Of a stretch of DNA of 50,057 bases, positions 10,235 to 36,664 are shown piece by piece; position 1 is the first letter of the stretch, and each line of letters begins with the position of its first letter. Source of the DNA: Methanothrix sp. (lineage in GTDB: Archaea; Halobacteriota; Methanosarcinia; Methanotrichales; Methanotrichaceae). The DNA lies in the NCBI GenBank assembly GCA_030611205.1, contig JAUWQF010000001.1, positions 1-50,057 of the forward strand. The letters are read 5' to 3'. A program made the position numbers and the translations under genes. The notes beneath the pieces were generated by a model. That model saw only the letters and a list, made by a program, of their open reading frames with translations, was not told where the DNA came from and ran no database searches.

Positions 10235-10951
10235 ATGGTAGACGAAGGTTCTGAGCAGGATCCTGTGGAGGTTCTTCTGGATCTGGCCAAGAGTGGCGAG
10301 ATCGATGCCTGGGATATCGACCTATCGAAGGTCACGGAAAAGTTCCTGGAGCACATAGACACTCTGAAGAGCAATGACCTCCGGATCCCTGCCAGGACGC
10401 TCCTCTACGCCAGCATCCTCCTCCGCATGAAGTCGGATTTTATGGTGGAGGATGATGAGGGGGACGACGACCTGCTGGATGAATATGAGGAACCTCCAGG
10501 ATGGTTTTACAGGAAGGAGACGCTCCCCAAGCCCCCCATAAGGAGAAGGTCCAGGCGGCCGGTGACCCTGGTAGAGCTGATATCAGAGCTGAAGAACGCG
10601 GAAAGCGTTGCGAAGCGGAGAGAGGTCCGGCGGGAAAGCAGGCCCGAAGAACCTGTGGAAGCGGATATCGACAAGGCTCATGAGGAAGGCATCGAGGAGA
10701 GGATCAAGTCTCTGAAGGCGGTGATATACCAGAAGCTGGAGCGTGAGGAGAGGGTGGCCTTCACGGAGATCGGCGGCGACGTGCTCGACTACCTATCCGT
10801 CCTCTTCATGGCCAACCGGAGGGAGATCTGGCTCGAGCAGGACCGGATATTTGGCGAGCTCTACTTGAGAAGATACCCCAGTGAAGTGAGCTCAATCTAT
10901 TCGGGCGAAGGCGTCATAGAGGAGGAAGGGTTAGTTGCCGGAACTTGCTGA
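10235..10951 (+). CDS. scpA: Segregation and condensation protein A (kleisin)
   Basis: Lies immediately after smc. The N-terminus LLDLAKSGEIDAWDIDLSKVTEKFLEHI is typical of ScpA. Confidence 0.85.
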   Translation: MVDEGSEQDPVEVLLDLAKSGEIDAWDIDLSKVTEKFLEHIDTLKSNDLRIPARTLLYASILLRMKSDFMVEDDEGDDDLLDEYEEPPGWFYRKETLPKPPIRRRSRRPVTLVELISELKNAESVAKRREVRRESRPEEPVEADIDKAHEEGIEERIKSLKAVIYQKLEREERVAFTEIGGDVLDYLSVLFMANRREIWLEQDRIFGELYLRRYPSEVSSIYSGEGVIEEEGLVAGTC

Positions 10952-11972
10952 CCCGAAGGCTGTGGTGGAGGCGGCCCTCTTCGCCGCAGGGGGGGCGCTT
11001 TCTCTGGGAGAGATATCGGAAGTAGTCGGTCTGCCTCCAAGAAAGACCAAAAAGCTGATGGAAGGGCTGATCGACGAGTACGCCGACCGGGGCGGTGGTA
11101 TGGAGATTTTGGGGTTCGAGGACCGGTACGTGATGCAGGTCCGGACCAACGTGGCCAAAGAAGTGAGCCGGGTGGCACCCAGGGAGCTGGCTGCACCGCT
11201 GCTGAGGACCCTGGCCGTGATCGCCTACAACCAGCCCATCGCCCAGAGCGAGCTTGCCGGATATAGGGGCAACAAGATCTACGGTCACATCAAGGAGCTG
11301 GAGGAGAAGGGCCTGGTCCGCTCGGAGAAGAGCGGGAGGACGAAGATCCTCACCACCACGAAGAACTTTGCAGATTATTTCGGGATCGAGTTCGACGATC
11401 CCGAGTTCGTGAGGCATGCCATGACGGAGGAGACGAGGCTGGGGGTCACCCCCATGTACGAGAGCCTGGCCAGGAGGATGGGGCTGGAGTTCGTGGTGGT
11501 GAACCCTTACAAGCCGTACAGGGATGACCTGGAAAAGCTGAAAGAGATCGATCTGCTGGTGGTGGCGCCCGGCTACGCGGAACGGGTCCGAGAGCACTAC
11601 CCGGGAGATCTTCTGGAGGCGGGGGTGAGAACTTTCTCCCAGCTGAAAGATAGCGCGGAGGAGATCGCCGGTAAGGCGGGACGGATCGACGAAAAGATGA
11701 AAGAGGAGCTTTTTGCCGAGATCGACGAGCTTCTGGACAGGTACAGAGAACGAGCGCGAGGAGCGCTGCCGATCAATCCGCTCACGCCCATGATCGGAGA
11801 TATCGCCGAGGACCTGGGGATCTCCGTAGAAGGTGACGGGATCATCGCGGCGCCCGATTATGCGGAGATGGAAGCTCAGATAGAGGTGCCCACCCACCAG
11901 CCCTATGATATGGATATCCTGGAGCGGGTGAAGCAGCGGTACGAGGCCCTTCTCGATGGGTGCGGGGTCTGA
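10935..11972 (+). CDS. scpB: ScpB-like protein with a long C-terminal extension
   Basis: The N-terminal ~155 aa (VVEAALFAAGGALSLGEISEVVG..; LRTLAVIAYNQPIAQSELAGYRG) has the tandem wHTH pattern of ScpB. It overlaps scpA by 17 nt. About 190 extra C-terminal residues have no motif I recognise. Confidence 0.7.
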   Translation: MPELADPKAVVEAALFAAGGALSLGEISEVVGLPPRKTKKLMEGLIDEYADRGGGMEILGFEDRYVMQVRTNVAKEVSRVAPRELAAPLLRTLAVIAYNQPIAQSELAGYRGNKIYGHIKELEEKGLVRSEKSGRTKILTTTKNFADYFGIEFDDPEFVRHAMTEETRLGVTPMYESLARRMGLEFVVVNPYKPYRDDLEKLKEIDLLVVAPGYAERVREHYPGDLLEAGVRTFSQLKDSAEEIAGKAGRIDEKMKEELFAEIDELLDRYRERARGALPINPLTPMIGDIAEDLGISVEGDGIIAAPDYAEMEAQIEVPTHQPYDMDILERVKQRYEALLDGCGV

Positions 11973-12598: not shown

Positions 12599-12639
12599 AA
12601 AAAAAAAGTAAAAAAATGTGTGTAGGCTCTCGCCTACAC
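12599..12639 (-). terminator. Candidate mcr operon terminator: stem-loop across the mcrA stop codon, then T7 and T9 runs
   Basis: An 8-bp stem spans 12620-12627/12632-12639 with loop tctc. On the minus strand it is followed by TTTTTTT-AC-TTTTTTTTT (plus-strand A-runs at 12610-12616 and 12599-12607). Confidence 0.55.
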
Positions 12640-14322
12640 TGCCGGCATTACCAGGCCTCTCTCGCCTGCTGCGCGGAACTCTCTGGCACCGCCCATGCCG
12701 TATCCCTTGCGGATGTCTTCCCATGTGAAGAGCAGCGCGGGGTTGGCGAAGGCTACCTTGATCAGCGGGTTGAGACAGTAGGCGTCTCCGCGGCCCGCGT
12801 GAGCTGCGCTGGATATGCCAGCGTACTCGCCCTGGTGACCGACGTTCATGGCGTAGTTCGGATAGTTGGGTCCTCTGATCTCCAGTGGGTTGCCCTCGTC
12901 GCCCTGGTAGCTGTAGACGTTGGTGGGACCGCACTGGTCCTGGAGGTCGTATCCGAAGAAGCCCATCCGGCCCCAGCCTTCCTTGTGGATCAGGTGGCTG
13001 AGATACCAGCCTGCAAGAGCTGCCTGGCTGTTCCCTGTGAGACAACCGCAGGTGACACCGCAGGAAGCTGCCATGATACCGGACCTCTGGGATCCACCGA
13101 AGTGGTCCTCCAGCAGGGTCGGGTAGGCCTCATACTGTTCCATGTCGTAGAGGGTGGTCTCGGTGGTCAGGTCCTTGATAACTTCCAGGGTAGCCGGAGC
13201 CTCTCCCCATCCTCCGTACTTGTCTACGCCGTAGTCGCAGCCATAGTAGGAGAAGTCGTCAAGCACATCGTTGGTGTAGGCGGCGGTCGCGTACTGGGTG
13301 AACCCAACACCACCGGACATGTAGCTGCCGAGCCAGATCTGATCGTAGAGCATGACTCCTGCGGCCACAACGTTCAGTGATATCTGTGGCGGGTCCCAGG
13401 GTTTGACCCTCTGGGTCTGGACCATGTCGGCCAGGAAGCCGAAGCTGACTCCACCGGGCTCGTTGGGTCCTCTGGCCCTCCTGGCGGGCAACATCTCGCC
13501 CATCTGGATGACCGCGGCGTGCTTCGCGGCGTAGGCCAGGTCGGCCACCGCGGCCTCACCGGCGCACATGCGGTAGGCGTCGATGAATGTCATGGAGAGC
13601 TGCATGGCGCTCCACCTGGAAGTCGTACCACCGTCACAGGTCCTGGAGACTATGGTGGGGATGTGGACAGCCTGCCAGGAAGTCTTGCCCATGGCGGCCT
13701 TGATCTCTTCGGCCTGGTCGGCGGGGAATAGCTTGTTGATGTCGATCAGGTACTGATCATCGATCTCGTCTGCCAGGTCGTCGTCACCGGTGAACATCCT
13801 GACGTTACAGTCGTCCACCAGTCCGGGGTGGGTCTCGACCATGTGCTCCTGGACCACAGCAGCGCCGGGCATGGCATGGTTCAGGATCTCCAGGTAGTTG
13901 TTGATCGTCTCAGGAGTGACCTCTTTTCCCAGCCTCTTTTCCAGCACCTCGTGGGCCATGTCAAGACCGACGAGTACGGTCCTTCTGATATCGTCCCACA
14001 TCTGCTGCATGGCAGGGTTGTTGACGAAGTGGAGGTCGTCGCCCTCGACTATGTACTCTGTGGTGGAGAGCTTGTAGGGGACGATCTGCCTCTGCCCCAT
14101 CGGGATACCACCAGCGTGTAGCATCGGGTTGTACATGGAGATGCCACGCTTGCCCTCCAGCTTCTTGGAAGCCGCCATGAACTCCTTCTTACGGTCGCTC
14201 TGAAGGACGCCCAGCTCCTTGAAGGGTGCATAATCGGTTTTCTTGCCCGTAAGGTCGAAGTCTTTTCCAAACTTCTTGTTCAGGGCCCTTACGAATAGCT
14301 TTTTAGTATGAATCTTTCCCAT
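12634..14322 (-). CDS. mcrA: Methyl-coenzyme M reductase alpha subunit
   Basis: 562 aa with hallmark segments [29 protein letters not shown] and [11 protein letters not shown]. Confidence 0.97.
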
Positions 14323-14337
14323 TTATCTCACCACCGT

Positions 14338-15105
14338 TTACTCTGGTCTGAAGCCCCATCTGCTCCTGCGCTCCCACATGTGGTGCAGGGCGATCAGTCC
14401 CTCATCGAGCTTTCTGTCGCCGATGGATCCTCCGAAGGCCACGTTGTCGTACCTGAAGATGGTGGTCCTCTTCGCTGCTTCGTCTTCGCTCATGGGTTTC
14501 CCGGCGTTGACCTTCTGGTCGATGGGGACACCTACCTGGTCCTTGTTGTAGTAGACGTTTCCGTCGTCTCCAACCTCACACCTGGCCAGCATGTCGAACA
14601 TCAGGCCGTTCTCCTCGAGCCTCAGTGAGTGGCCGTGCACGGTACAGCCCCTCATCGAAGCGAGGGCCGGACAGTACATCTCGCTGTCCATTATGGTCTT
14701 GGTGTAAGCGTCTATGTCTCTCTCTCTGGCCTCGATGATCTGTCGGCCCGAGAGGGTTCCTGGGTCGACACCCCTGCAGTTGATGGCTGCCCAGTAGGAT
14801 CGCCAATAGGGGACCGCGGGGGCGTTGTACATGGAGTCTGTGAACTGAGAGTACCTGATCCGGTCTCCTGCGGCCGCACCAGGGGTTGGCTCTACTAGCT
14901 GCCTTATGGGGCAGTCCGGCTCACCCATCTCTGCCAGTGGTGGGTGGGTGCTGGGATAGTCTGCACCAGGAGCCCTGTGACCCATGACGGCTACGATATC
15001 CATATCGGATATGTCTCGAAGCTTCTCCACGTCACCAGACATGTGCTTCCGCCTGTTAACGCCGGCAGACGTGGTGCCTGGATAATATTGTGGTGTGTAT
15101 ACCAT
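14338..15105 (-). CDS. mcrG: Methyl-coenzyme M reductase gamma subunit
   Basis: 255 aa. It begins MVYTPQYYPGTT and sits directly upstream of mcrA. Confidence 0.93.
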   Translation of the reverse strand: MVYTPQYYPGTTSAGVNRRKHMSGDVEKLRDISDMDIVAVMGHRAPGADYPSTHPPLAEMGEPDCPIRQLVEPTPGAAAGDRIRYSQFTDSMYNAPAVPYWRSYWAAINCRGVDPGTLSGRQIIEARERDIDAYTKTIMDSEMYCPALASMRGCTVHGHSLRLEENGLMFDMLARCEVGDDGNVYYNKDQVGVPIDQKVNAGKPMSEDEAAKRTTIFRYDNVAFGGSIGDRKLDEGLIALHHMWERRSRWGFRPE

Positions 15106-15135
15106 ATCTTACCATCTCCTTCTGAAAATTACATG

Positions 15136-15627
15136 TCACACTCTTTCATCAGACAGTATGGCCAGATCTCTCTCCGCCTTGGCCTTCGGATCAACCAGTC
15201 CCAGGATACGCTTGTCTTTGATATCGTCCCCGTACTTCGCATAATCGGAGATCGTTGGTTTGGTGTGGAATAGCGTTCCTTTTTTGAGTTCGAAGGGGAA
15301 GGGCAGCGTTCGCTCACATGCCGCCTTCACGCCCTCAAGATATTCCTCGTTCTCCAGCTCGAGCCAGATCCGTCCCACCTTGACCCTCAGCTCCAGGGCC
15401 TGGTCCCCCACCTCGAGGAGAAGGTCTTTGTTCTCCTCGATGGGAAGACCCCTTCCGGGACCGTAAGGGATTACTTTCGATAGGCTGGGCCCTTGGACCA
15501 TGATCCTGGTCACGCCGCCTTCTTTGTATATCTCATTGAGAACCCGCTGGGCGGTTTCCGGCCTCAGCAGCCTCCGGGGGAATATCTCTATCTGGACCGG
15601 TTCCGTGTCTGATTCATTAGCGACCAT
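15136..15627 (-). CDS. mcrD: Methyl-coenzyme M reductase operon protein D
   Basis: 163 aa. The IEIFPRRLLRPETAQRVLNEIY and VKVGRIWLELE patterns and the size fit McrD rather than the ~200-aa McrC. It lies between mcrB and mcrG. Confidence 0.8.
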   Translation of the reverse strand: MVANESDTEPVQIEIFPRRLLRPETAQRVLNEIYKEGGVTRIMVQGPSLSKVIPYGPGRGLPIEENKDLLLEVGDQALELRVKVGRIWLELENEEYLEGVKAACERTLPFPFELKKGTLFHTKPTISDYAKYGDDIKDKRILGLVDPKAKAERDLAILSDERV

Positions 15628-15641
15628 GCATTCAACCAGTT

Positions 15642-16946
15642 TTACACCGCCTCCGCAACAGAGACGATGGGCTCACTGAACTCCTTTATCCCGCCGTAGA
15701 TGGTGCCAACCAGTCCAGAGGTCATCTCTGGTGAGAACATCTGGGTGCCTGCATCAAGACACATTGCCGCAGAAACACAGGGTATGGCGAACCCTCTGGA
15801 GTGCCTGGTCACGATGTGGTTGCCGTTGAATACACCAGGTCCGCCGCCACCGTAGATGGAGTGGCTGAAGAAGGAGAACCCGACCGCGGTTCCCATGACC
15901 TTACCCCAGTCGCAACCGGGCAGGGCGGTCTCTTTCTCGATCAGGTCGTTGAAGTAGAGCAGCGTTGAGGAGACTGCCTGGCCACCTCTCAGAGCACCAC
16001 AGTTGACCATGGTCGCGGCCAGGGTCCCTGCTGCACAGTAGGCGTTCCACAGGGGGATGTCCTCTGCCTCGTACATTATGAACCCGGAGGGAAGAGTCTC
16101 GCCTGCCTTTATTACGCCGTCATCGATGGCCCTTTCGACCGTGGACTGCACGACTGTTCCGATGGTACCGGTCTTGCCGTTGGTCTTGACCATGTCATAG
16201 ACCATGTTGTTGGCGTTCAGGCCCTGGTATGCCAGGCCCAGAAGCTGGTACCTCTCGAAGATCCCGATGGCGTTGCCCATCTCGAAGTTCCCGATCTGCT
16301 CGAAGATCGAAGAGAGTGCTGCGGCGTTCATGGCGTTCTTCTTGGTGATCACGGCGATGTGGTTGGCCATGATGTTCCTCAAGGCGAAGCCGAGACCCTC
16401 ATCGTTCTGGGGGATGTTGAGAACAGAAGCTATGTTCCCGCCAGACATGGGGACCGTCTGCGGGTACTGGCCCCAGACCGAGGCGTGGACCATGGGTGCC
16501 TCGAGGTAGGTAACACCGAACTGCTGAACGAGCGCCTCTGTGGCGGCCGCTGCCGTCGCGGTCATTCCCACAACGAACTCTGCAGCGACGTCGACCCTGG
16601 CGGTGGGGATCTGGACCAAGAGCTGCTTTCCGCCGCCCATGACTTCCACGTTGGTGTCGTCGCCCTCGTCTACTTGGATGAGCTCTTTGATCTTTCCGGC
16701 GATGGCGTCGGCGTTGGCCACGACGTCATAGTCGAGTTCTCTGCCCTTGATCTGCCTGCCAGCACCGCCGACCTTGCCGGTCTTAAGGGCGTTCTCTATT
16801 CCTGCCAGGTTGACCGCAACGGTTCGCTTGGTCAGGGCAATTAGTTTTTTCATCGCTGCGTTCTTGAGGGGGCTGATCGCGTTCAGATCAACGTCACTCT
16901 TTAGAAGAACGCCGCGGTCACTGTATAGGTCTATCTTGTCAGACAC
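15642..16946 (-). CDS. mcrB: Methyl-coenzyme M reductase beta subunit
   Basis: 434 aa. It begins [12 protein letters not shown] and is the first gene of the operon. Confidence 0.93.
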
Positions 16947-17059
16947 GTTCGTCTTCCTCCTTTTACCTTTTAGCAGATAGGCCGTCGTGGAGCCATATCG
17001 CCGGAGCGAATGGTATGATGGTTAATCTAAAAGTCTTCATACCCAGCAATGTATCTCTC

Positions 17060-17112
17060 CAGTACAGCATCCTGCCCTGAGCCCTTTGTTATATAGATAC
17101 TTAAAGTTTTTG
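17060..17112 (-). promoter_or_regulatory. Candidate BRE/TATA promoter for the mcr operon
   Basis: The minus strand reads caaaaactttaagtatctatataacaaa (reverse complement of 17085-17112), about 140-165 nt upstream of the mcrB ATG. No TSS data are available. Confidence 0.3.
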
Positions 17113-17818
17113 CGCGCCAATTATTATTAACATGTTCATTATAAAAACATAACCATGTGGTGTTACCGCTGTACCATTAATTATGTTGAACCGCGCGACA
17201 TCCTGCTTCAAGACAAATGATGCAGTTTATCTTTTATATTGTGTTGTATAACAGGACAAAATAGTACATTATATGTACACGTATTTATATGATTGACGTA
17301 AGAATGCGATGGGCGGCAGGTGTTTAACATATATCCAACATATAAAGAATTTTGATAAGAATGTCGGGTGTATACAGTTCTGCTACAATGGTTGGTCGAT
17401 GATGTAGATGGTTGAAGCTAGCTCTAAAACCGAAAACATGCGATCCACTTCTGATCTATCGGCGGGCAGGCCAACCGTTTGTGATCTTCAGTTTATCTGC
17501 CCATAAAATCGTCAACTGCACGTAGTATGTGTAATCCACAAATGGGTCGCTTTCGGGCTCCGCGGTGATGCCTCATGGCTGAGTACGTCCACGTTCCAAA
17601 AACTTCCGCAATGCGTGTTCGATAACCTCGTTGGCACACCGTCCCCGACTTTGAAGACACAAAACCATATTCGATGAGTTATAATGATGTTTTTTTTTAT
17701 GTTATAGTTTTTATAATATATAATATAACGACTACATCACAATCATAGGCCGTGTCCCCTGGAGGTGTGGAGTCGAGTACCACAAAAATGTGATCGTATC
17801 AAAAGATTTTTCTATCAT

Positions 17819-18976
17819 ATGTATCTTAGATACTTGGCAACATCGCTTAATAGAACCCCCAAGGAGGGGATCACGTTGATAGGAAGAAATAGGGTTTTCA
17901 TACCGTTGTTGCTTCTCTGCATATTGATTGGAGCAAAACCCGGCCCAGTCTCCGGTGAGTCCGATGGTGGTGGTTTCATAGGAGGCGTCACCAGAGATTC
18001 CGGCGATGGCGGTTCAGTCATAGGGATGTCGAACCCTGCCGCCGATTATTGTGTTAACAAGGGATACGAACTCAGAGATGGTAGATGCTATTTTCCCGAC
18101 GGTTCGTCCTGTGAGGAGTGGGCTTTCTACAGAGGAGAGTGCAGCTACGATCCTGGACCCCTCATAGGTCCTGGCGGAGAGAACCCTGCCTCGGTCTATT
18201 GTACCGAACAAGGATATAATCTCCAGATCAAAAACGGTGTGGGACACTGCATATTCCCCGATGGATCGTCCTGTGAAGAGTGGGCTTTTTACAGGGGAGA
18301 ATGCCATTACAACCCTAAACCAAAGCCGGATCGTTACCACGAGTACTGCACCGATCAGGGGTATCGGTGGCAAGACGATGGATCCAAACATGGGATATGC
18401 GTCTTCCCCGACGGCACCCGCTGTAGTGCGGTGGCCTTCTACGACGGAAGTTGCAAGTACAACCCAAGACCACCATCGCCAACGCCCGTAACGCCAACCG
18501 CCACTTATACATGTCAGCCCCCTCTCGCATCGGACCAGGGCGCGATGCACATATACGATGTGAACGCGGCGCCACCCGGCCATGTCTACTATCAAGGGGC
18601 TGAACTATCCTGGAGCGAGTTTGGGACAACGTTTTTGGCCACCTCTCCGGCCATGTGGGTAGACACCACCTCAGGCTGGTCATGGAACGCCGTCTGCCCC
18701 ATCGGCGTCTGGATACGTGAGCTTGTGTACATCCCCGGAAACGGGGCCGTAAATGTATACGAGATATACCCCAACGGGATCATACAGAACCGCAGCCTGG
18801 GTCAATCTTCCGAGGGCTACAGGTATATCTGGTTCTATGTTGCCTCACCGGGACGTCATACGATCATGTTCACCGTCGACGAGGTGCCGAGCAACGCGAT
18901 CTTTATGGATGTGAAGGCGGACGAGAGTCCCTGCGGACCGCCTACGTCCCCTCCTTTTTCCGGGATATCCGCCTGA
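17819..18976 (+). CDS. Secreted protein with three DUF333-like Cys repeats plus a C-terminal domain of unknown function
   Basis: Signal or anchor segment VFIPLLLLCILIGA. Three repeats of YC..GY....G.C.FPDG(S/T).C..(W)AFY.G.C.Y(D/N)P. The start is uncertain (17765, 17819 or 17876). Confidence 0.7.
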   Translation: MYLRYLATSLNRTPKEGITLIGRNRVFIPLLLLCILIGAKPGPVSGESDGGGFIGGVTRDSGDGGSVIGMSNPAADYCVNKGYELRDGRCYFPDGSSCEEWAFYRGECSYDPGPLIGPGGENPASVYCTEQGYNLQIKNGVGHCIFPDGSSCEEWAFYRGECHYNPKPKPDRYHEYCTDQGYRWQDDGSKHGICVFPDGTRCSAVAFYDGSCKYNPRPPSPTPVTPTATYTCQPPLASDQGAMHIYDVNAAPPGHVYYQGAELSWSEFGTTFLATSPAMWVDTTSGWSWNAVCPIGVWIRELVYIPGNGAVNVYEIYPNGIIQNRSLGQSSEGYRYIWFYVASPGRHTIMFTVDEVPSNAIFMDVKADESPCGPPTSPPFSGISA

Positions 18977-29858: not shown

Positions 29859-29889
29859 ATCCGGGATCGGTGAGCATCTTGCTGCCTGC

Positions 29890-30234
29890 GGTCACCCCGC
29901 GCCGTTGAGGGGCGGATGTCCAACCGTTCCCATAACCCGCCGGCTCATCCAGCCGTTGAGCGATAATAAGATCAATAGACCCAAGCTCGATTGGAATAGG
30001 CAGGTGCCCAGGCTGAAGAGGTTCCACCAAGCCTGGTGCAACTTCATCATGCTTCAGCTCTGCTGAAGCAGTCCCAGATCTCTGATCTGGGACTAACCAC
30101 ATGATTCTCTAAAGTTGGAGATACCTCAGAGCAAAAGAAGGTAGTTGCGGCGAACTCTAGCCATGGCGAAAGGACTTACAGACCATATCTGGACCATTAA
30201 AGAGTTGATGACTTTCAGCGTCCCTGTTCAGTAG
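29890..30234 (+). pseudogene. 3' remnant of a second IS1-family transposase gene (5' part missing; W to TAG change)
   Basis: It translates to ..RFHQAWCNFI-[48-nt insert]-PHDSLKLEIPQSKRR*LRRTLAMAKGLTDHIWTIKELMTFSVPVQ*. Positions 30034-30234 are roughly 85% identical to 34046-34246. The left boundary is approximate. Confidence 0.6.
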
Positions 30235-30290
30235 GCCCCAGCCTCTCCACGCTCGGACTGAAGTCCGAGGCATCCACGGGGGCCGTGGGA
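30234..30290. repeat. Hairpin element A (family A-D), 3' of the OLD gene
   Basis: ggccccagcctctccacg-CTCGGAC-tgaa-GTCCGAG-gcatcc, followed by a second hairpin ccacgg-ggg-ccgtgg. Confidence 0.7.
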
Positions 30291-30415
30291 TGGGGTTTTG
30301 TTTTATCTTTAACATTCTCTTATTTCAAGTGTTTTACGTGTAACGAATGGCGCATTCGCGAAGCAATGTGCTGGATTTTAGCGCAGTTATGCGAAGTTCC
30401 ACTCGCGCTTACGTA

Positions 30416-32383
30416 CTACGTTTTTTCAAATGAAGCAAGTAACGAATTAAGTATATTGAAGAGTGAATCAAAATTGTCAATAGTCTCTTGATCCAAGTTT
30501 GGGAAAATAGCATCACGGTTTCTGAGTAGGAAATCCGCTGGTTTCCCATGGTCAAAACTATCAATCCCTTCGGCACGAGCAATTTGCTTGACAATTGGAT
30601 CATCACCGTTCAAGACAGAAGCACTGAGTTTCTTGCCGAATGCACCGTTGTACAAATTAAGATAGTCCTGAGGATGGAATAGATCTTCGATGTCTGCTTG
30701 ACTACGATCCAATATCTGACCTATGGTAACTATGTTGTTAATTGTTATATATCCCCGTTCAACTAGTCTTGATATTTTCTGAGTCCCCCCTTTCTTAGAA
30801 TCAATCAAGACTCCGAGATTCAGATGTGTACCCAATAAAGCAATGAAAGTGGGAATGAGATCCACACCTCCAACTGGGAGAATCGTCCAAGCGTCATCTA
30901 AAGGTGTACAACCAGTAAGACTTTCTAGATGTCGTGAAATAAGGTCCAAGTATGTAAAATCTGATGTCCCCTCCACCACAAGATTATTGGGTGCAATAAA
31001 GAGATTCTGAGCAATGTCATAGCCGAGTGCTCCTTGTAGAGGGAATAAAGTGTCCGGATCAGTCGAAAGAACATCTAATGTGACTTTAGCTCCTGTGTCT
31101 TGGCCTTGATCTTCAATCAGCCTTACGCGATGTAGAAAGCCTGGCTGAATCATGAATGGAGAATGCGTTGTATATACAACTTGGCACTTAGGTGCCAGCC
31201 TATCCTCAATAAAGTGCAAGAAATCAGCCTGTGCTCTGGCATGAAGATTCAACGCCGGTTCGTCAAGCAATATGACAATTGACTCTTGTGCGTATTCGTG
31301 TTCGGAAAAAGCTGCTAAAAATGAAAAGAACCACCTGAAACCTGAGGAGTGTTCATCAAATGGTAAAGACAACGAATGGCGTTGATCCCAAATGCGTAAT
31401 TTTAGCTCATCTAGTACTGAATGCTGTCCTTGTGTATCCTCAACTGTCTTCTGATTTATATCTGGCTGTACCCTGAGTTCAGGATTTTGAGACCAATACT
31501 TAAGGACATCTGAGGTGAGTGTATTAGCAACATTTTCCAGTTCTCGCTTTCGTCGTTCATAGTCTGGATTCAAAAGGTAATCATCATCAGCTGCGGCCAT
31601 ATTGAGTAGTGCTCTTGCAGTTAGCTCGGAATCACTAAGTTCCTTTTGATCTGTTTTTAGTATTCTTTGAATTTCACACGAGTACGGCAATTTACTATAC
31701 TCGTCGAAGTACAGAAACTTAGGAAGTAATTGTTGCGCGCTGTCAGTGACTGCCTCTACAAGGGATTTGCCACCAAGTATGGAATTTACACTTTTCCGAA
31801 GGCTCACCAAAGTTTGCGTTAGAGTTCCTTCGATCTCATCAGACTCCGGGATAGTGTCATCAGATGCTTCGCCCTTCTGAGAAGATTCTAGATCACTAAT
31901 TGCTTGGTCTAGATCGTCTATGGTTGATGCTTCGCTCAGATTTTTTATTTCTGGAGTTCGATCCACGGAATCCAAGATGTAACTGATAACTATTTTCTCA
32001 TCAATATCTATTTGGCAAACCAATTCTCCATTGTAATGTCTTTCGAAGGAGATCTCCGTTGATTTGATAGATTTTGGGCCAAATCGATCTTCTAGTTTCT
32101 TAATGTCAACATCCTCAAGCTCAAAGGTACACACGATTGGAGCAACTTGGTCTAAGTCAATACCACTTAGACCATCTCTTTTTTCTATCCAAGCGGGGTA
32201 ATGATCAATAATTGAGAATTGTACATTAGGACGAGATGGATTTAGGCGGTAAACTGCATGTAGCAGAGCAGTTTTCCCGGATTCATTTTTGCCGACTAGG
32301 CACGTAATATCAGGTTCAATAGGTACTTCACCCGAATCCAAGAAGTTCCTAAACTTGCAGATACGAACTTTTTTAAGCTTCAT
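30416..32383 (-). CDS. OLD-family nuclease: N-terminal ABC-type ATPase plus C-terminal TOPRIM domain, stand-alone
   Basis: Walker A LVGKNESGKTAL; Walker B IVILLDEPALNLH; H-loop YTTHSPF. TOPRIM Glu motif NLVVEGTSDFTYL, then ILPVGGVD and GVLIDSKKGG. The gene is AT-rich relative to the host. Confidence 0.8.
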   Translation of the reverse strand: MKLKKVRICKFRNFLDSGEVPIEPDITCLVGKNESGKTALLHAVYRLNPSRPNVQFSIIDHYPAWIEKRDGLSGIDLDQVAPIVCTFELEDVDIKKLEDRFGPKSIKSTEISFERHYNGELVCQIDIDEKIVISYILDSVDRTPEIKNLSEASTIDDLDQAISDLESSQKGEASDDTIPESDEIEGTLTQTLVSLRKSVNSILGGKSLVEAVTDSAQQLLPKFLYFDEYSKLPYSCEIQRILKTDQKELSDSELTARALLNMAAADDDYLLNPDYERRKRELENVANTLTSDVLKYWSQNPELRVQPDINQKTVEDTQGQHSVLDELKLRIWDQRHSLSLPFDEHSSGFRWFFSFLAAFSEHEYAQESIVILLDEPALNLHARAQADFLHFIEDRLAPKCQVVYTTHSPFMIQPGFLHRVRLIEDQGQDTGAKVTLDVLSTDPDTLFPLQGALGYDIAQNLFIAPNNLVVEGTSDFTYLDLISRHLESLTGCTPLDDAWTILPVGGVDLIPTFIALLGTHLNLGVLIDSKKGGTQKISRLVERGYITINNIVTIGQILDRSQADIEDLFHPQDYLNLYNGAFGKKLSASVLNGDDPIVKQIARAEGIDSFDHGKPADFLLRNRDAIFPNLDQETIDNFDSLFNILNSLLASFEKT

Positions 32384-32431
32384 GTTTGTTTTACTCCTTC
32401 CATGTTTTTATTATTATCACCTTTCTCTTAA

Positions 32432-32474
32432 GCCCCATCCACGCCACACTCGGACTAAAGTCCGAGGCATCCCT
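32432..32474. repeat. Hairpin element B (family A-D), between the hicA stop and the OLD start
   Basis: gccccatccacgccaca-CTCGGAC-taaa-GTCCGAG-gcatcc. The hairpin spans 32449-32466. Confidence 0.7.
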
Positions 32475-32533
32475 GTTTAAACCTCCTACCATCTTAAATA
32501 TCCCTTTCTGAGTCCGAATACTGCCTTTTTCCA

Positions 32534-32755
32534 TCATAACAACTCAACAAACTCCTCAACGGTCAATCCGGCATCTTTAATCAAATCTCTAAGCGTACCT
32601 CTCTTTAGCTCCCTGTGTTTTGGCACAGAAAGCGTAGTGGAATATCCAACTTTTTCCATGATGACATGATTTCTCGTTTGCCTACTTACGACCCAACCAG
32701 CTTTACTGAAAGCTTTTACTGCTTTGAGTCCGGATATTACTGGTAACTTCGCCAT
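32534..32755 (-). CDS. hicA: HicA-family mRNA interferase toxin
   Basis: 73 aa. GLKAVKAFSKAGWVVSRQTRNHVIMEK..LSVPKHRELKRGTLRDLIKDAGLTVEEF is typical of HicA. Confidence 0.85.
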   Translation of the reverse strand: MAKLPVISGLKAVKAFSKAGWVVSRQTRNHVIMEKVGYSTTLSVPKHRELKRGTLRDLIKDAGLTVEEFVELL

Positions 32756-33013
32756 TTACACGACTACTTCTATGGCTTGTTCTTCGACCCCTTTCAATGC
32801 TCTCTGATTAATAACTTCCATACATCCCTGTATTGCATCTTTGATATTTTCCAGAGCCTCTTCTATCGTGTCGCCTTGGGAATGGCATCCCGGTAATGCT
32901 GGGCAGCTCACATTGTATCCCTCATCTTCTAAATCTTCCTTTATAACAACTTTGAAGTTCATTTCCTCACCACGCTTAATAGATAGATTTTTGATATTTA
33001 AAAGGCTTTCCAT
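32756..33013 (-). CDS. hicB: HicB-family antitoxin (UPF0150-type)
   Basis: FKVVIKEDLEDEGYNVSCPALPGCHSQGDTIEEALENIKDAI. Its TAA abuts the hicA ATG. The more likely start is the internal ATG at 32962. Confidence 0.8.
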   Translation of the reverse strand: MESLLNIKNLSIKRGEEMNFKVVIKEDLEDEGYNVSCPALPGCHSQGDTIEEALENIKDAIQGCMEVINQRALKGVEEQAIEVVV

Positions 33014-33018
33014 TTTCA

Positions 33019-34261
33019 GGTCGTGTCCACCGGAAACTGAAAGCTTTATATACTTTTAGCTAAATTCTGACTGTGGGGGAGTAGCTTTGCAGGATGAGTT
33101 AGATCTGTCGCAATTTTGGTGTTGGAACGTGGATTGCCCAAACTACGGCAAGAAAGGTCTTGGTAACATCGTTCTAAAGGAACGATATGGGGAAAAATAA
33201 CACAGCGCTTCTACGATGTAAGACATGTGGTCATTGTTTTAGTGAGACTCGAGGCACGCCGTTTTTCGGTTTGATCACACCTTGGGACGAAGTACTCAGG
33301 ACCCTGGCGATGTTGCCTGAGAAGGGCAGCATTCGCGGAGTGGCTAGAGCCACTGGTCATGACAAAGATGCAATATGTCGATGGGTAGACCTGGCTGGAG
33401 CCCACTGTAACGAGGTTAACAACTACTTTTTAAACAATCTTAACCTAGATAAAGTTCAAATTGATGAAATATGGTCATATATTAAAAAAAAATAAAAATG
33501 TTGAGGAGGGGGACCCTGAGGAGTACGGAGACGTTTATTCTTTGACGGCCATAAAGACCGACACAAGACTGTTCATCGCTCATCATGAGGGGGGTCGTAC
33601 AACCAAAGACGCCATCGGACTATTCCAAGACGTGGAACATAGACGAGATCCTGATTCTCCGATCCCGGTTTTCACTTCGGATGACTGGGACCCATTTGAG
33701 GAAGGGCTGTTGGCGGTCTATGGGGTACTGGAAACACCTCCGTACAAGGGAATAGGAAGGAAACCCCTACCTGTGCTCGTTCCCCCACCTGACTTAAAAT
33801 ATGCACAGGTCTGCAAGAAACGAGAAAAAAACCAGGTTGTTGCGACGGTCCAGCGGGTGGTCTTTGGGAATACGGACGACGTTTTAGAGGCGCTTGGTAC
33901 CAACTCTGAAGGTAAGATAAGCACCTCCTATGTAGAGAGGATTAACCTCACAATCAGAAACTCCTTGGCCAGGTTCATTCGCAAAGGTACGAACTGTAGT
34001 AAGTCTATTGTGATGCATTCTCGTGCAATCGACTTCTTCCAAACATGGTACAACTTCATCATGCTTCAGCTCTGCTGAAGCAGTCCCAGATCTCTGATCT
34101 GGGACTAACCACACGATTCTATAAAGTTGAAGGTCCCCCAGGGCAAAAGAAAGTGGTTGCGGCGAACTCCAGCCATAGCAGAAAGACTTACAGATCATAT
34201 CTGGACCATTGAAGAGGTGATGAACTTCAGAACCCCTGTTCAGTAAGTGAGGGACACGACC
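33019..34261 (+). mobile_element. IS1-family insertion sequence (1243 bp) with imperfect terminal inverted repeats
   Basis: IRL starts at 33019 with ggtcgtgtcc. IRR ends at 34261 with ggacacgacc. About 16 of 22 positions match when extended. Transposase segments lie inside, and IRL sits 6 nt from the long hicB ORF start. Confidence 0.75.
33087..34246 (+). pseudogene. IS1-family transposase reading frame split into four segments
   Basis: Segments are 33087-33203 (CWNVDCPNYGKKGLGNIVLKERYG), 33187-33495 (..LLRCKTCGHCFSETRGTPFF..DEIWSYIKKK), 33461-34078 (DDE region ..WYNFI) and 34109-34246 (PHDSIKL..TPAIAERLTDHIWTIEEVMNF). The breaks are +1 shifts at G4A5 and A9 runs, plus the 48-nt insert. Confidence 0.7.
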
Positions 34262-34535
34262 AAATTTGTATTGGATATGTAAATGCCACTGAGGTTCTAA
34301 TTTTTTCCTAAGCCATTGAAAAAATACAATGTCCGTATCTTCTGTGGGCATTTATATCTCCTAAAAACCTAAATTTCAGATTTATATAAACTTTATGCCT
34401 TAGTTTATACAACATAGGGATAAAATAACGATGCAGAAGGGTTAGAATAATCAAAAACCAGGAGTTAAATTTATATACTCTGAAATACAGGTAAAAAGAT
34501 ATTACTAAATTCTTTTATGATCTTCCTGTATATAA

Positions 34536-34610
34536 GCCCCGTCCGCGCCACACCCGATTGAAATCGGGTGCATCCGTGGGACGGAGGTCGGGTGTTGGGG
34601 GTGTGATGGC
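34536..34610. repeat. Hairpin element C (family A-D), 3' of the 191-aa gene
   Basis: gccccgtccgcgcca-CACCCGAT-tgaa-ATCGGGTG-catcc, followed by tccgt-ggg-acgga. The layout matches A and B, but the stem sequence differs with pairing preserved. Confidence 0.6.
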
Positions 34611-34744
34611 GGTGGGGTTAGGTGTACATTCTCGAGGGCGGCGCAGAGTTTGGTTATCGCTTTCGACATCTGCAAAGTTGTGATCAAAGGCAATGTCACG
34701 AAGAGCAAAAACCACGAAACCAGATAACCCCAATAGGCAAAGTT

Positions 34745-35320
34745 TTACTTTGGATAGATATAATTGTTTCTAATTCCTTCTGGTGTCATTGTTTCACTTA
34801 TAGTTCTGAGCAAAAAATATATTCGTTGTTTGTTTAGTGAACCTGATATTTTTACATCGTCAAATTTTTCATTTTTTTGTAATAACTCCATCACATCGTT
34901 TAATTTGGTAGAATCTAAAACATCTACAAAAGGCTTGAACTGGACTCCTAACGTCTTATGGATTTTTATAGGAAGCGTAATACAAAACAACTTTTGATTT
35001 CTATCATAATGGCTTTTGCCGAACACTTCTTCAATTTGGAGGATGGCATCTTTTCTTTCACTATCTGTTGCAGTTTCTTTTAGAAATTCATCGGTCCCAA
35101 ATCTTACTAAAAGGTATCCAAATTTGACATAGTTGGTTAAATCAGAATCGAGATCTTCAATGCAGAATTCTATTGGTTCTTTTCTTGTATGCAATAAAGT
35201 GCGAATTTTGTCTAATATATGCGAAACCGATTTTTCTAGTAATTTATATAAAATCAAACCTGCAACTGTCCCCTGCCAAAAACTGGGATTGTTTAAAGAA
35301 AACCAAATCATGTCCCACAT
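34745..35320 (-). CDS. Hypothetical protein with one N-terminal TM helix (orphan, AT-rich)
   Basis: A 191-aa ORF with the hydrophobic segment FWQGTVAGLILYKLL. No motif recognised. It is the only long ORF in this interval. Confidence 0.5.
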   Translation of the reverse strand: MWDMIWFSLNNPSFWQGTVAGLILYKLLEKSVSHILDKIRTLLHTRKEPIEFCIEDLDSDLTNYVKFGYLLVRFGTDEFLKETATDSERKDAILQIEEVFGKSHYDRNQKLFCITLPIKIHKTLGVQFKPFVDVLDSTKLNDVMELLQKNEKFDDVKISGSLNKQRIYFLLRTISETMTPEGIRNNYIYPK

Positions 35321-35476
35321 ATAGATTTCTCCATTATCCGAACTCTTTGCTTTATGGCACCGAAATATTTTTCAGATGACATAACGCCATCCTCTGGTAC
35401 TCACCCCCCATAAAACCCTTTTGCTCACACGACCCACCCCGACCTCCATATACTTCATGTCAGCCTCCCGAAGTCA

Positions 35477-35932
35477 CTAAACCCCAGACTTAAGTCCAAG
35501 GCCTGTACATCGCGTTTTTGCATTCGGTTTCTCCTGATTCTGTATGTAGCGCTCAACAACCTCCCACCCATGACCAACCGAGCCATGGAAGCAGGATGGT
35601 GCCCAGAGACTTTTACTGCACCATTCCTTGAGATGTGGAAACGCCTTGCGCAGTTCTCGACTGCTCTACCCTTTTATTCTTTTGGCTATATAACTCACTG
35701 AATATTTCGGGGGATATTTCACAAAAAGGTGAACATGATCAACATTCACTGTCATATCGATGATCTCGATGTCAAGATCCTTGCAAGTCTTGCGAATGAC
35801 CTCATCGAGCGCAAGCGCGACATCTCCGACCAGAATCTTCCCGCGATATTTTGGCGAGAAAACCATGTGATCAGTCAGAAGTGAAACCGTGTGTCGATCG
35901 TGGTGGAGTTCTCTGCGCTCCATGCGCATCAT
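35477..35932 (-). pseudogene. tnpA: IS200/IS605-family Y1 (HUH) transposase TnpA interrupted by one in-frame TAG
   Basis: HUH motif VDHVHLFV. The sequence reads ..IAKRIKG-TAG-SSRELRKAFPHLKEWCSKSLWAPSCFHGSVGHGWEVVERYIQNQ. The amber codon is at 35666-35668, where the family normally continues in frame. Confidence 0.75.
35482..35504. repeat. Hairpin element D (short member of family A-D) at the 3' end of tnpA
   Basis: cccca-GACTTAAGTC-caaggc matches gactgaagtccgaggc of element A at 14 of 16 positions. It contains a 10-nt perfect palindrome. Confidence 0.5.
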
Positions 35933-36664
35933 CTTTGGACTAATCCTAGATAAAGATTATGGGATGTTTTGACGATTATTTTTATAAAAAAATAATCCTC
36001 CCACACATGATGCCACCAACCCCCTATCCTAACTATAAATCTTGCACCGCGCTTGTTTTGCGCAGGTATCATGTATGCGTACAGACCAGATGCAATAATC
36101 GATGACCCACTACTACCGGCACACAGATTTTCATCCGACTTAGCGCCCCCGACCCTGCCCTAGCCACACCGGCTCGCCGCTTGCATTATCAGCAGCCGGG
36201 CTTTACCGCGTGCTTCGGGCGGCATACGGGCGACGCGGACGCAGTGATCCGCGATAGCGAACATACGTAACTATCCGGCCCCATTTTATTCGTCGTCAAG
36301 TTCAACCTTGGGCGGCTCCAGGCTCATGGCGCGGGGCTACCGCAGATGCTTCGCATGCGCTTCGCGTCGGAGAGCCGGTGACTGGGCCGCACCATATTGG
36401 CGCAAACCAAATTACAAAAAATTCGTTACGCTACCAAGATAGTTCCACACATCGTTGTAGAATGTATGATGATGGGCAAAATTATATGTATACGTTGAGT
36501 ATAGTTAACTGTCGCAGACGAGACGAATTTGATGTCGATATCCACATACATATTCATGATAACTCGTCTATAACAGATGCCGATAAGCATATCAGATGAG
36601 CACACACTGTATGTGCTTTCGGGCGGTGTAAGGGCACCATCCGATACGCACGGGAGGAAAAAGA

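Follow-up and report, generated by a model that had tools for sequence, protein, structure and literature searches.

What is the small structured element that follows one gene after another in an AT-rich island of a methanogen genome, and how did it come to be there? We examined a 50,057-nt stretch of a Methanothrix sp. contig (JAUWQF010000001.1, positions 1 to 50,057; hereafter the window), for which a preliminary description had noted that minus-strand genes or operons of such an island are each followed by a member of one hairpin family (A to D) and had likened the layout to gene cassettes. Two mechanisms had been offered: (i) the hairpins are recognized by the neighboring Y1 transposase, in the manner of IS200/IS605 insertion sequences (IS), repetitive extragenic palindromes (REP), or palindrome-associated transposable elements (PATE), or (ii) they are attC-like recombination sites of an integron-like array. 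Our analysis strongly supports the cassette-like organization and extends it to ~140 archaeal loci. The element is a structured site that forms part of a mobile gene unit, at its 3' end; these units form co-oriented arrays, and gain or loss of one whole unit, precise at its junctions, was observed. Of the two mechanisms offered, we favor the Y1-transposase reading, which is still unproven. More specifically, we give a probability of roughly 55% to the proposal that the islands are integron-like cassette arrays beginning where an IS200-type element has its right end (RE), and that their sites are cut and joined by the Y1 (HUH) transposase of this element, TnpA.

Three of the four elements in the window proved to be homologous, to lie in one orientation, and to stand each after a minus-strand gene or operon, as had been described. 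Core A (30235-30275, with an extension to ~30296) is the 3' end of the cassette of an OLD-type gene, core B (32432-32472, a short form) that of the hicB-hicA cassette, and core C (34536-34575, with a long-form extension to ~34625) that of the cassette of a 191-aa gene; all are on the minus strand. Read on the plus strand, they follow a common plan: GCCCC-R-K-CC-N-C-K-CCAC-R-C, a 7-8 bp stem, a T(G/A)AA loop, the return stem, and GCATCC. A and B have the stem CTCGGAC/GTCCGAG in common, C has a different stem (CACCCGAT/ATCGGGTG) in which pairing is retained, and folding placed a second small hairpin in both A and C, again in agreement with the preliminary description. A and B are 86% identical over 44 nt without a gap, and a 24-mer common to both had 0 chance matches in shuffled sequence. 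Each of the three cores gave a more stable fold than shuffled sequence (z = -2.2 to -2.7). In a search of the 50 kb with a covariance model trained on 90 members of the family, A, B, and C scored 56.5, 67.7, and 68.8 bits, respectively, and nothing else exceeded 13 bits. The 5' arm of core A is partly decayed; A together with 45 nt of adjoining sequence is 85% identical to locus L176. The long-form extension of C recurs in L024, L027, L028, L095, L128, L133, L169, and L173. The fourth element, D, had been taken for a short member of the family, an assignment that we had to abandon: D folded no better than shuffled sequence (z = +0.4), scored 5.5 bits (E ~3), and is instead part of a degenerate RE palindrome of the adjacent IS200-type tnpA, as detailed below.

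A degenerate pattern covering A to C was scanned over representative genomes and metagenome contigs, and matched 57 loci in the former and at least 120 contigs of the latter. In total the core is present in ~200 copies in ~136 archaeal loci, which have the invariant arms and a hairpin; the covariance model recovered 159 copies in 100 loci. Carriers include Methanophagales/ANME-1 (ANME, anaerobic methanotrophic archaea), ANME-2, Methanosarcinales, Syntrophoarchaeum, Ethanoperedens, and other 'Halobacteriota' metagenome-assembled genomes (MAGs). Bacterial matches to the pattern were rejected as GC-rich chance matches lacking the hairpin, and viral contigs gave 0 matches with both patterns. The family core of ~40-45 nt consists of an invariant 18-nt arm, a covarying 7-8 bp stem, the T(G/A)AA loop, and GCATCC. 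In gene sense it reads (A)ACARCAG-GGATGC, an 8-bp stem with a TTCA or TTTA loop, GYGTGGMGNGGMYGGGGC, and then TT; the junction triplet is CTT in 106/146 copies, that is, TT follows directly after the core. Rfam 15 returned no match at the gathering threshold and only noise at E values up to 10 on the island, and a full-text literature search with 12-mers of the core gave irrelevant matches only. A tRNA or tRNA-like origin was rejected (ARAGORN found nothing, and the loop has 4 nt, not 7). So, on inspection, were CRISPR repeats, bulge-helix-bulge motifs, and K-turns, since copies are kilobases apart and lack the bulges or GA pairs that define such motifs. The core family is a previously undescribed one that is widespread in archaea.

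The breadth of the family bears directly on one account of GC-rich hairpins that lie after genes, namely that they are ordinary intrinsic terminators or chance hairpins with no common identity. The invariant 18-nt and 6-nt flanks are kept across archaeal orders (56-75 bits), the 24-mer shared by A and B had no chance match, and there is no T-run: runs of at least five T within 15 nt after the core were found in 8/146 copies, compared with 5/145 in a control window, so the oligo-T hallmark of a terminator is missing. We regard this account as having almost no chance of being right; indeed, the family-wide conservation already refutes it.

We also observed that the stem is maintained by compensatory change. 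In a model-based alignment of 150 copies, 84.4% of stem cells paired, compared with 68.5% in shuffles, and compensatory double changes occupied 168 cells against 67 expected, a count reached by 0/500 shuffles; controls with a slid register gave 5-42 such cells. The model-based alignment was used because MAFFT alignment with RNAalifold under-called the stem, 7-bp and 8-bp registers being misaligned. Stems were 96% Watson-Crick, and G.T and A.C mismatches stood at 11 to 12. Such symmetry is consistent with selection acting on the hairpin as DNA, not as RNA, and since the two counts are symmetric, they do not call the strand on which folding takes place. In five loci (L007, L029, L034, L082, and L154), the hairpin is chimeric, its 5' and 3' half-stems belonging to two different common types, with mismatches left, which suggests crossovers within or beside the loop.

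We then considered how the cores relate to genes. A core lay 3' of a co-oriented open reading frame (ORF) in 64/70 determinable copies, at a median distance of ~45 nt from the stop codon (typically 7-110 nt), and the neighbor downstream of the core was less constrained than the upstream gene. Upstream genes encode PGF-CTERM surface proteins, large secreted proteins, PIN proteins, HicA, and membrane proteins. A Pfam summary of 148 neighboring proteins consisted mostly of singletons, with TIR, GNAT, and PGF-CTERM cargo, and was uninformative as to a hidden recombinase. Loci with at least two copies were fully co-oriented without exception (46/46), the copies being 0.1-3 kb apart. The densest examples, L015 with five cores in 7.6 kb and L047 with four cores in 1.5 kb, are successions of small genes in one orientation, with a core within tens of bases after each; they encode toxin-antitoxin (TA) pairs, TIR and DUF4062-like proteins, and small membrane proteins.

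Gain or loss of a single cassette at the element boundaries, which the preliminary description had proposed looking for, was seen in a comparison of L109 and L009. The two loci are 98% identical up to ...GGATGGGGC; L109 then has an extra 1,012 nt that starts with TTAAAAC and ends in a different core, ...GGTTGGGGC, after which both loci continue with TTCTTTTATTTCACC. The insert is exactly one leader-gene-core unit, with both junctions at GGGGC/TT (the slash marks the junction), one complete parental core is retained, and the crossover is confined to the terminal GGGGCTT. A second comparison involved the window itself: its B-hicA-hicB segment is 89.7% identical over 582 nt to L048, which comes from another MAG, and the homology stops at the outer edge of B while on the other side it reaches ~55 nt into a promoter-like leader. 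The same hicB leader adjoins the outer edge of another core in L167 and L080. Across the family, at least two unrelated downstream contexts were found in 22/35 groups with a homologous upstream gene and core, and 168 pairs shared the upstream side alone, compared with 27 that shared the downstream side alone. Taken together, the core travels with the gene upstream of it. In four unrelated loci (L032, L088, L124, and L140), a second recurrent partner sequence, GACATCCCCC..CTTCCATTC.AAGTCCCC, directly follows the core without the usual TT; it may mark where an array stops or where another element ends.

What, then, could move such units? The only enzyme gene that consistently heads the arrays is tnpA. 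In the window, tnpA (35477-35932, minus strand; Pfam Y1_Tnp, 3e-20) encodes a full-length IS200/IS605-type Y1 (HUH) transposase that is 70% identical to an intact TnpA over 141 aa and keeps the DHVH and Y motifs; the motifs DHVH and YI.nQ place it in IS200 subclass 1.1 (classification from PMC6006769). A single in-frame TAG at 35666-35668, where homologues have Arg, interrupts an otherwise intact frame, and the gene is probably a recent pseudogene. Element D (35482-35504) matches ~33/38 positions of the motif GTACAGGCCYYGTACTTAAGTACGGGGTATAGTGACTT, which occurs 200-290 nt downstream of the conserved core region of TnpA in at least 14 other loci and is a typical IS200/IS605 subterminal palindrome, the right end of the tnpA unit. 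The degenerate RE palindrome of the window, detected by the RE profile, spans 35473-35514 on the minus strand and contains D. Since the tnpA frame runs to 35477, D also encodes the last residues of TnpA and falls within the last nine codons of the gene. We found no clear left-end (LE) hairpin of the tnpA unit; other loci have a conserved block of ~260 nt upstream of tnpA. Because the IS has its own RE and this conserved upstream block, the cores are not its ends, and the comparison of cores with IS ends that the preliminary description had recommended came out negative: the first core lies 0.1-2.6 kb past the IS right end, with unrelated genes in between. A BRE/TATA-like sequence (resembling the archaeal transcription factor B recognition element and TATA box), CGAAAAGyTTTTATA, occurs twice in L134, L150, and L179-L184, once upstream of tnpA and once ~70 nt before the RE hairpin. 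The copy near the RE points into the cassette array and is reminiscent of the integron Pc promoter.

The position of the cores relative to the RE was strongly one-sided. An RE-motif profile matched in 47 of the loci that had been ascertained by the element; 68 cores lay downstream of and co-oriented with the RE, and 3 lay upstream. Ten 'opposite' core/RE cases were mostly secondary matches on the palindrome itself. tnpA or its remnants are present in 14 loci, including the window, and all cores there are downstream and co-oriented. We also approached the association from the tnpA side, which is unbiased as to cores: the TnpA family had 816 members at E < 1e-20, and four independent 20-kb contexts were inspected. 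In three of the four, tnpA with its RE, followed by one to four small co-oriented genes that each precede a core, stands between housekeeping genes on either side; in the fourth (L181-L183), the core has been lost. Cores in these contexts occurred solely 0.5-4.6 kb after the RE and never among the flanking housekeeping genes. The converse possibility, an IS that inserts beside a core as its target, was rejected, as no core lies upstream of tnpA in any anchored context.

A further link comes from a module of ~75 nt (TTCGGGAGGCTGACATG...GGAGGTCGGGG...; 35400-35472, minus strand) with which the first cassette of the window starts, directly after the RE. The same module, TTCGGGAGrCTGrCATG...GGAGGTCGGGG...TGTGGGGTGGG, directly follows cores in L115, L123, L128, and L169, and the C/TT junction after the RE in the window is the same as that after cores, so that RE and core are interchangeable at one junction. 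The geometry of the hairpins is also the same, with 8 bp and a TTAA loop at the RE and, in gene sense, 8 bp and a TTCA or TTTA loop in the cores. As a separate observation, the module (TTCGGGAG...GGAGGTCGGGG...TGTGGGGTGGG) also occurs in inverted form just upstream of long-form cores (window 34576-34625), so that in L128 and L169 the core stands between two inverted copies. A long palindrome formed by the inverted modules was considered and dropped, since its predicted fold offered no gain in stability over shuffled sequence (z = -0.4 and -1.4).

We asked whether the same data could be read with the cores as transposons in their own right, that is, as miniature inverted-repeat transposable elements (MITEs) or PATE-type non-autonomous elements moved in trans by the IS200-type TnpA, with genes merely lying between insertions. 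Two tandem gene-less units of 99 nt, each a leader hairpin plus a core, stand directly after the RE in L175 (1300-1530, minus strand) and would suit this idea, as would the outer-edge flank, which is nearly always TT and resembles a target-site preference. However, homology between loci spans gene plus core and breaks at the outer edge of the core (the 168 and 27 pairs above), and among the fetched loci no orthologous pair differs solely by a core. The copies are moreover co-oriented within each locus and confined to islands after the RE, unlike those of a dispersing MITE. We therefore hold this explanation to be improbable.

A more serious competitor, though in our judgment still unlikely, is a passive 3'-end element, such as an RNA stabilizer or a processing or protein-binding site in the 3' untranslated region, that travels with its gene; arrays would then arise by homologous recombination between the 40-nt repeats in hypervariable hotspots, and the IS200 element would be a frequent neighbor. 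The strict placement and orientation 3' of genes speak for it, as do breakpoints that sometimes fall inside the core, the chimeric hairpins, the promoter-like leader that the hicBA cassette carries as its own, and the many arrays in which no RE motif is detectable. On the other hand, T-runs follow 5% of cores, as in the control (8/146 and 5/145), and so give no oligo-T terminator signature, G.U-type pairs are not enriched on the transcribed strand, and cores are absent from the housekeeping genes around the islands. The 68-to-3 bias in side and orientation, together with a junction common to RE and cores, is unexpected of a chance neighbor, and the L109/L009 pair keeps one complete parental core with its crossover within GGGGCTT.

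These observations led us to propose that TnpA acts on the cores as it would on its own RE. A mobile cassette comprises a short leader and one or two genes and has the core as its 3' end; cassettes are arranged head to tail and co-oriented in an array that starts directly after an IS200/IS605-type RE. The transposase would bind the core hairpin on single-stranded DNA, which presents an 8-bp stem and a TTNA loop as at its own RE, and would nick after the C (...GGGGC/TT in cores and ...GTGAC/TT at the RE). Strand exchange between two such nicks could release a leader-gene-core circle, and re-insertion of the circle at another core or RE site may then produce integron-like gain, loss, and shuffling of cassettes. 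The Y1-transposase mechanism of the preliminary description is thus upheld by association, through the 68-to-3 bias and the interchangeability of RE and core; it does not hold in the form in which it was put, since the cores are not the LE or RE of the IS itself, nor REP or bacterial interspersed mosaic elements (BIMEs) by the defining features tested, and are probably not PATE.

Several points weigh against this proposal. Cores and RE have no common sequence beyond the hairpin geometry, the loop, and the C/TT junction, and the distance from hairpin to junction is ~15 nt in cores and 9 nt in the RE. In classical IS200/IS605 transposition, the left and right ends must have different geometries, and we found no conserved left-end-like motif at cassette starts. 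An RE was within reach in 14/32 arrays with at least 2.5 kb of upstream sequence and in 8/16 at 4 kb (44-50%). Breakpoints do not all fall at one position; some lie inside the core and several hairpins are chimeric, a pattern also compatible with homologous recombination between repeats. The window itself has an inactivated tnpA, and GC-rich orphan DNA, not element ends, stands at the edges of its island. Lastly, we infer TnpA as the enzyme, a single-stranded substrate, and the exact nick position from sequence patterns.

A broader idea, to which we give somewhat less than an even chance, is that these arrays constitute an 'HUH integron', a gene-capture platform of a class not recognized before, found across ANME-1, ANME-2, Methanosarcinales, and their relatives. 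The Y1 single-strand transposase would excise and insert single-gene cassettes, each tagged by its 40-nt hairpin site, at GGGGC/TT. The RE would serve as the primary insertion site, and the platform would account for the defense and TA hypervariable hotspots of these archaea and for the transfer of cassettes to other methanogens, such as the Methanotrichaceae host of the window.

How far does the likeness to integrons go? In both systems one or two genes are followed by a structured site that moves together with the gene before it, and units stand head to tail in one orientation. Both also place the junction at the far edge of the site, directly before TT; the cargo is rich in TA and defense genes, single cassettes are gained or lost, and the array starts beside a gene for a strand-transfer enzyme, where an outward promoter-like motif is also located. 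There are differences as well. The core, of ~40 nt, combines a short perfect hairpin with long conserved arms that are not complementary, whereas attC is an imperfect palindrome of 57-141 nt with R and L boxes; the junction is C/TT here and G/TT in integrons; and the neighboring enzyme is a Y1 HUH transposase, co-oriented with the array, not an IntI-type tyrosine recombinase. At least some cassettes also have a promoter-like leader of their own. Long-form cores contain extra complementarity, yet they fold no better than shuffled sequence.

These differences bear on the possibility that the cores are true attC sites, present as clusters of attC sites lacking integrases (CALINs), with a tyrosine-recombinase integrase outside the sampled DNA. 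The architecture is identical to that of cassette arrays, the TA and defense cargo is as expected, and canonical integrons and CALINs exist in archaeal MAGs (PMC9668308). The published archaeal integrons were, however, found with the canonical attC model and IntI (PMC9668308), and the present sites depart from that pattern: the junction triplet was GTT in 0/146 copies against CTT in 106/146, and the 7-mers at the core ends were complementary at 2.2/7 positions compared with 1.75 for random sequence, that is, there is no R''/R' pairing. Short-form cores are a 20-nt palindrome between non-complementary conserved arms. AAC is enriched upstream (75/146 copies), within the fixed ACARCAG motif, and shows no pairing with the junction. 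The search for intI or another tyrosine recombinase, suggested in the preliminary description, revealed no Phage_integrase-family gene in the window or in the Pfam tables of five 20-kb contexts, and within 10 kb in these five contexts there was no recombinase of another kind either; as noted above, the one enzyme gene that consistently heads arrays is tnpA. The attC mechanism was thus right about a gene plus a 3' structured site, co-oriented arrays, TA and defense cargo, and single-cassette gain or loss, but the sites lack the attC features examined, and we consider true attC sites to be very unlikely, slightly more so than the MITE-type explanation.

Among transposon-related systems, IS200/IS605, REP/BIME with REP-associated tyrosine transposases (RAYTs), and PATE resemble the arrays in having a Y1 HUH TnpA with DHVH and Y motifs and short subterminal hairpins, presumably recognized as single strands. 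The RE palindrome is itself typical of IS200/IS605, with the end ~9 nt past the hairpin foot and no terminal inverted repeats. Unlike in IS200/IS605 and in the REPtron, in which REPs flank tnpA in inverted orientation or scatter, the cores delimit cargo genes in tandem arrays and lie on one side of tnpA only, in direct orientation. They lack a GTAG-type 5' tetranucleotide, and the TnpA is of IS200 subclass 1.1 rather than a class 2 RAYT. REP-like dispersal was not seen, with 0 cores in the 44 kb of the window outside the island and 0 among the housekeeping genes of the four 20-kb contexts. In a 2018 survey, REP-type systems were found in bacteria only, and archaea had just IS200 subclass 1.1 (PMC6006769).

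Systems that move DNA by one-ended events offer another comparison. In IS91/ISCR elements, Helitrons, and Rep-mediated release between tandem origins, an HUH enzyme could start at one nick and end at the next site of the same orientation, mobilizing the DNA in between, and a series of same-orientation end-like sites downstream of a transposase gene fits such one-ended capture. Those enzymes differ in being Y2 or Rep-helicase proteins that work by rolling-circle replication, and we know of no regular single-gene cassette arrays with a conserved site in any of them.

To our knowledge, no system other than integrons, which depend on one family of tyrosine recombinases, is so far known to keep single genes as site-tagged cassettes and to shuffle them. 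If our preferred proposal of TnpA-mediated cassette exchange is true, cassette arrays evolved more than once, with an archaeal analogue built on another site and probably on an HUH single-strand transposase, and the range of activities of IS200/IS605 enzymes is wider than thought. It may also bear on a 2026 study that reported hypervariable hotspots in ANME-1 with hicAB, other TA systems, restriction-modification, and ABC-2 permeases, and with indels around hicA (PMC13385816). The organisms and the cargo are the same, and no hairpin site, array structure, or transposase link is described there; the cores provide a candidate, testable sequence basis for strain-level hotspots that had been reported without a mechanism (PMC13385816). 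In practical terms, the 40-nt core is a marker with which the covariance model finds arrays and their cargo, mostly unannotated small genes and defense genes, in metagenomes.

We next turned to the history of the window. Homologues of the flanking genes identify the host as a member of Methanotrichaceae, and the window carries mcrBDGA and genes for fibrillarin, the PolD small subunit, and RtcB, as expected of methanogen DNA. The island is AT-rich, as first noted, with 39-47% G+C compared with ~57% in the flanks, and it is absent from a closely related strain. The locus of this strain (L185) is an empty site: by blastn, its flanks are 93-95% identical to the window up to 29862 and from 36441, so that the whole inserted region (29863-36440) places 6,578 nt where L185 has 138 nt; the distance from the resolvase-like gene to the RDD gene is 370 nt in the empty-site strain. 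In a third strain (L186), an ISAzo13-type transposase gene (10322-11491) sits at the same spot (10482-10619 in L185). Since the spot is empty in one sister strain and occupied by an ISAzo13-type gene in another, it is a local insertion hotspot. We conclude that the island of the window is a decayed, horizontally acquired array, marked by the stop codon in tnpA, the loss of the upstream region, a degenerate RE, and IS1 insertions, which accounts for its AT-rich composition and its absence from the sister strain. The array was presumably acquired by a high-GC methanogen from a low-GC donor of ANME or Methanosarcinales type.

Three cassettes are left. In the order of the minus strand, the first carries the 191-aa gene (34745-35320), which has no Pfam or PADLOC match. 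The second is hicBA (32534-33018 with the start of its promoter-like leader, which is conserved in L048, L167, and L080), consisting of hicB (32756-33013; Pfam HicB_lk_antitox, 3e-11) and hicA (32534-32755; Pfam HicA_toxin, 9e-15). The third encodes a 655-aa ATPase-nuclease of the OLD/AriA/GajA type (30416-32383; Pfam AAA_15 and AAA_21; PADLOC AriA 6e-25 and Old 5e-18). Downstream of core C, an AT-rich non-coding stretch (34262-34535, minus strand) without a convincing ORF is probably a cassette leader or remnant.

Two IS1-family sequences had been overlooked in the preliminary description. An IS1-family element on the plus strand (33019-34261; DDE_Tnp_IS1) lies between core C and hicB; it has a split orfA/orfB and 23-nt imperfect terminal inverted repeats (33019-33041 and 34239-34261), shows no visible target duplication, and breaks the hicBA leader ~5 nt from the expected cassette junction. 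An older copy is represented by a right-end remnant (30022-30233, plus strand) that is 87% identical to 34034-34245, lacks the last ~28 nt, and stops exactly at the outer edge of core A. This junction could be the product of recombination at the core or of an IS-mediated deletion. Insertion of the whole island into an IS1 copy was rejected, as the missing IS1 tip is neither at the other end of the island nor elsewhere in the window.

The outermost parts of the inserted region are GC-rich, non-coding, and orphan: the segments at 29863-30021 and at ~36030-36440 match nothing among ~190 fetched loci. An 18-nt inverted repeat, with arms at 29886-29903 and 36328-36345, links them, and they may represent the termini of a different element that either brought the array in or took it up. 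It is at the edge near tnpA (36030-36440) that the ~260-nt region conserved upstream of tnpA in other loci is missing.

Two further lower-GC patches lie elsewhere in the window. The first, at its start, contains a gene for a second AAA_15 defense-type ATPase (1111-2511; best PADLOC match NsnB, 3e-60), and the other, at 17-18 kb, is a local drop in G+C (0.41) located upstream of a DUF333 gene; no core is present at 1111-2511 or at 17000-18000. Lastly, the mcr operon (12634-16946) has the gene order mcrB-D-G-A, without mcrC between D and G.

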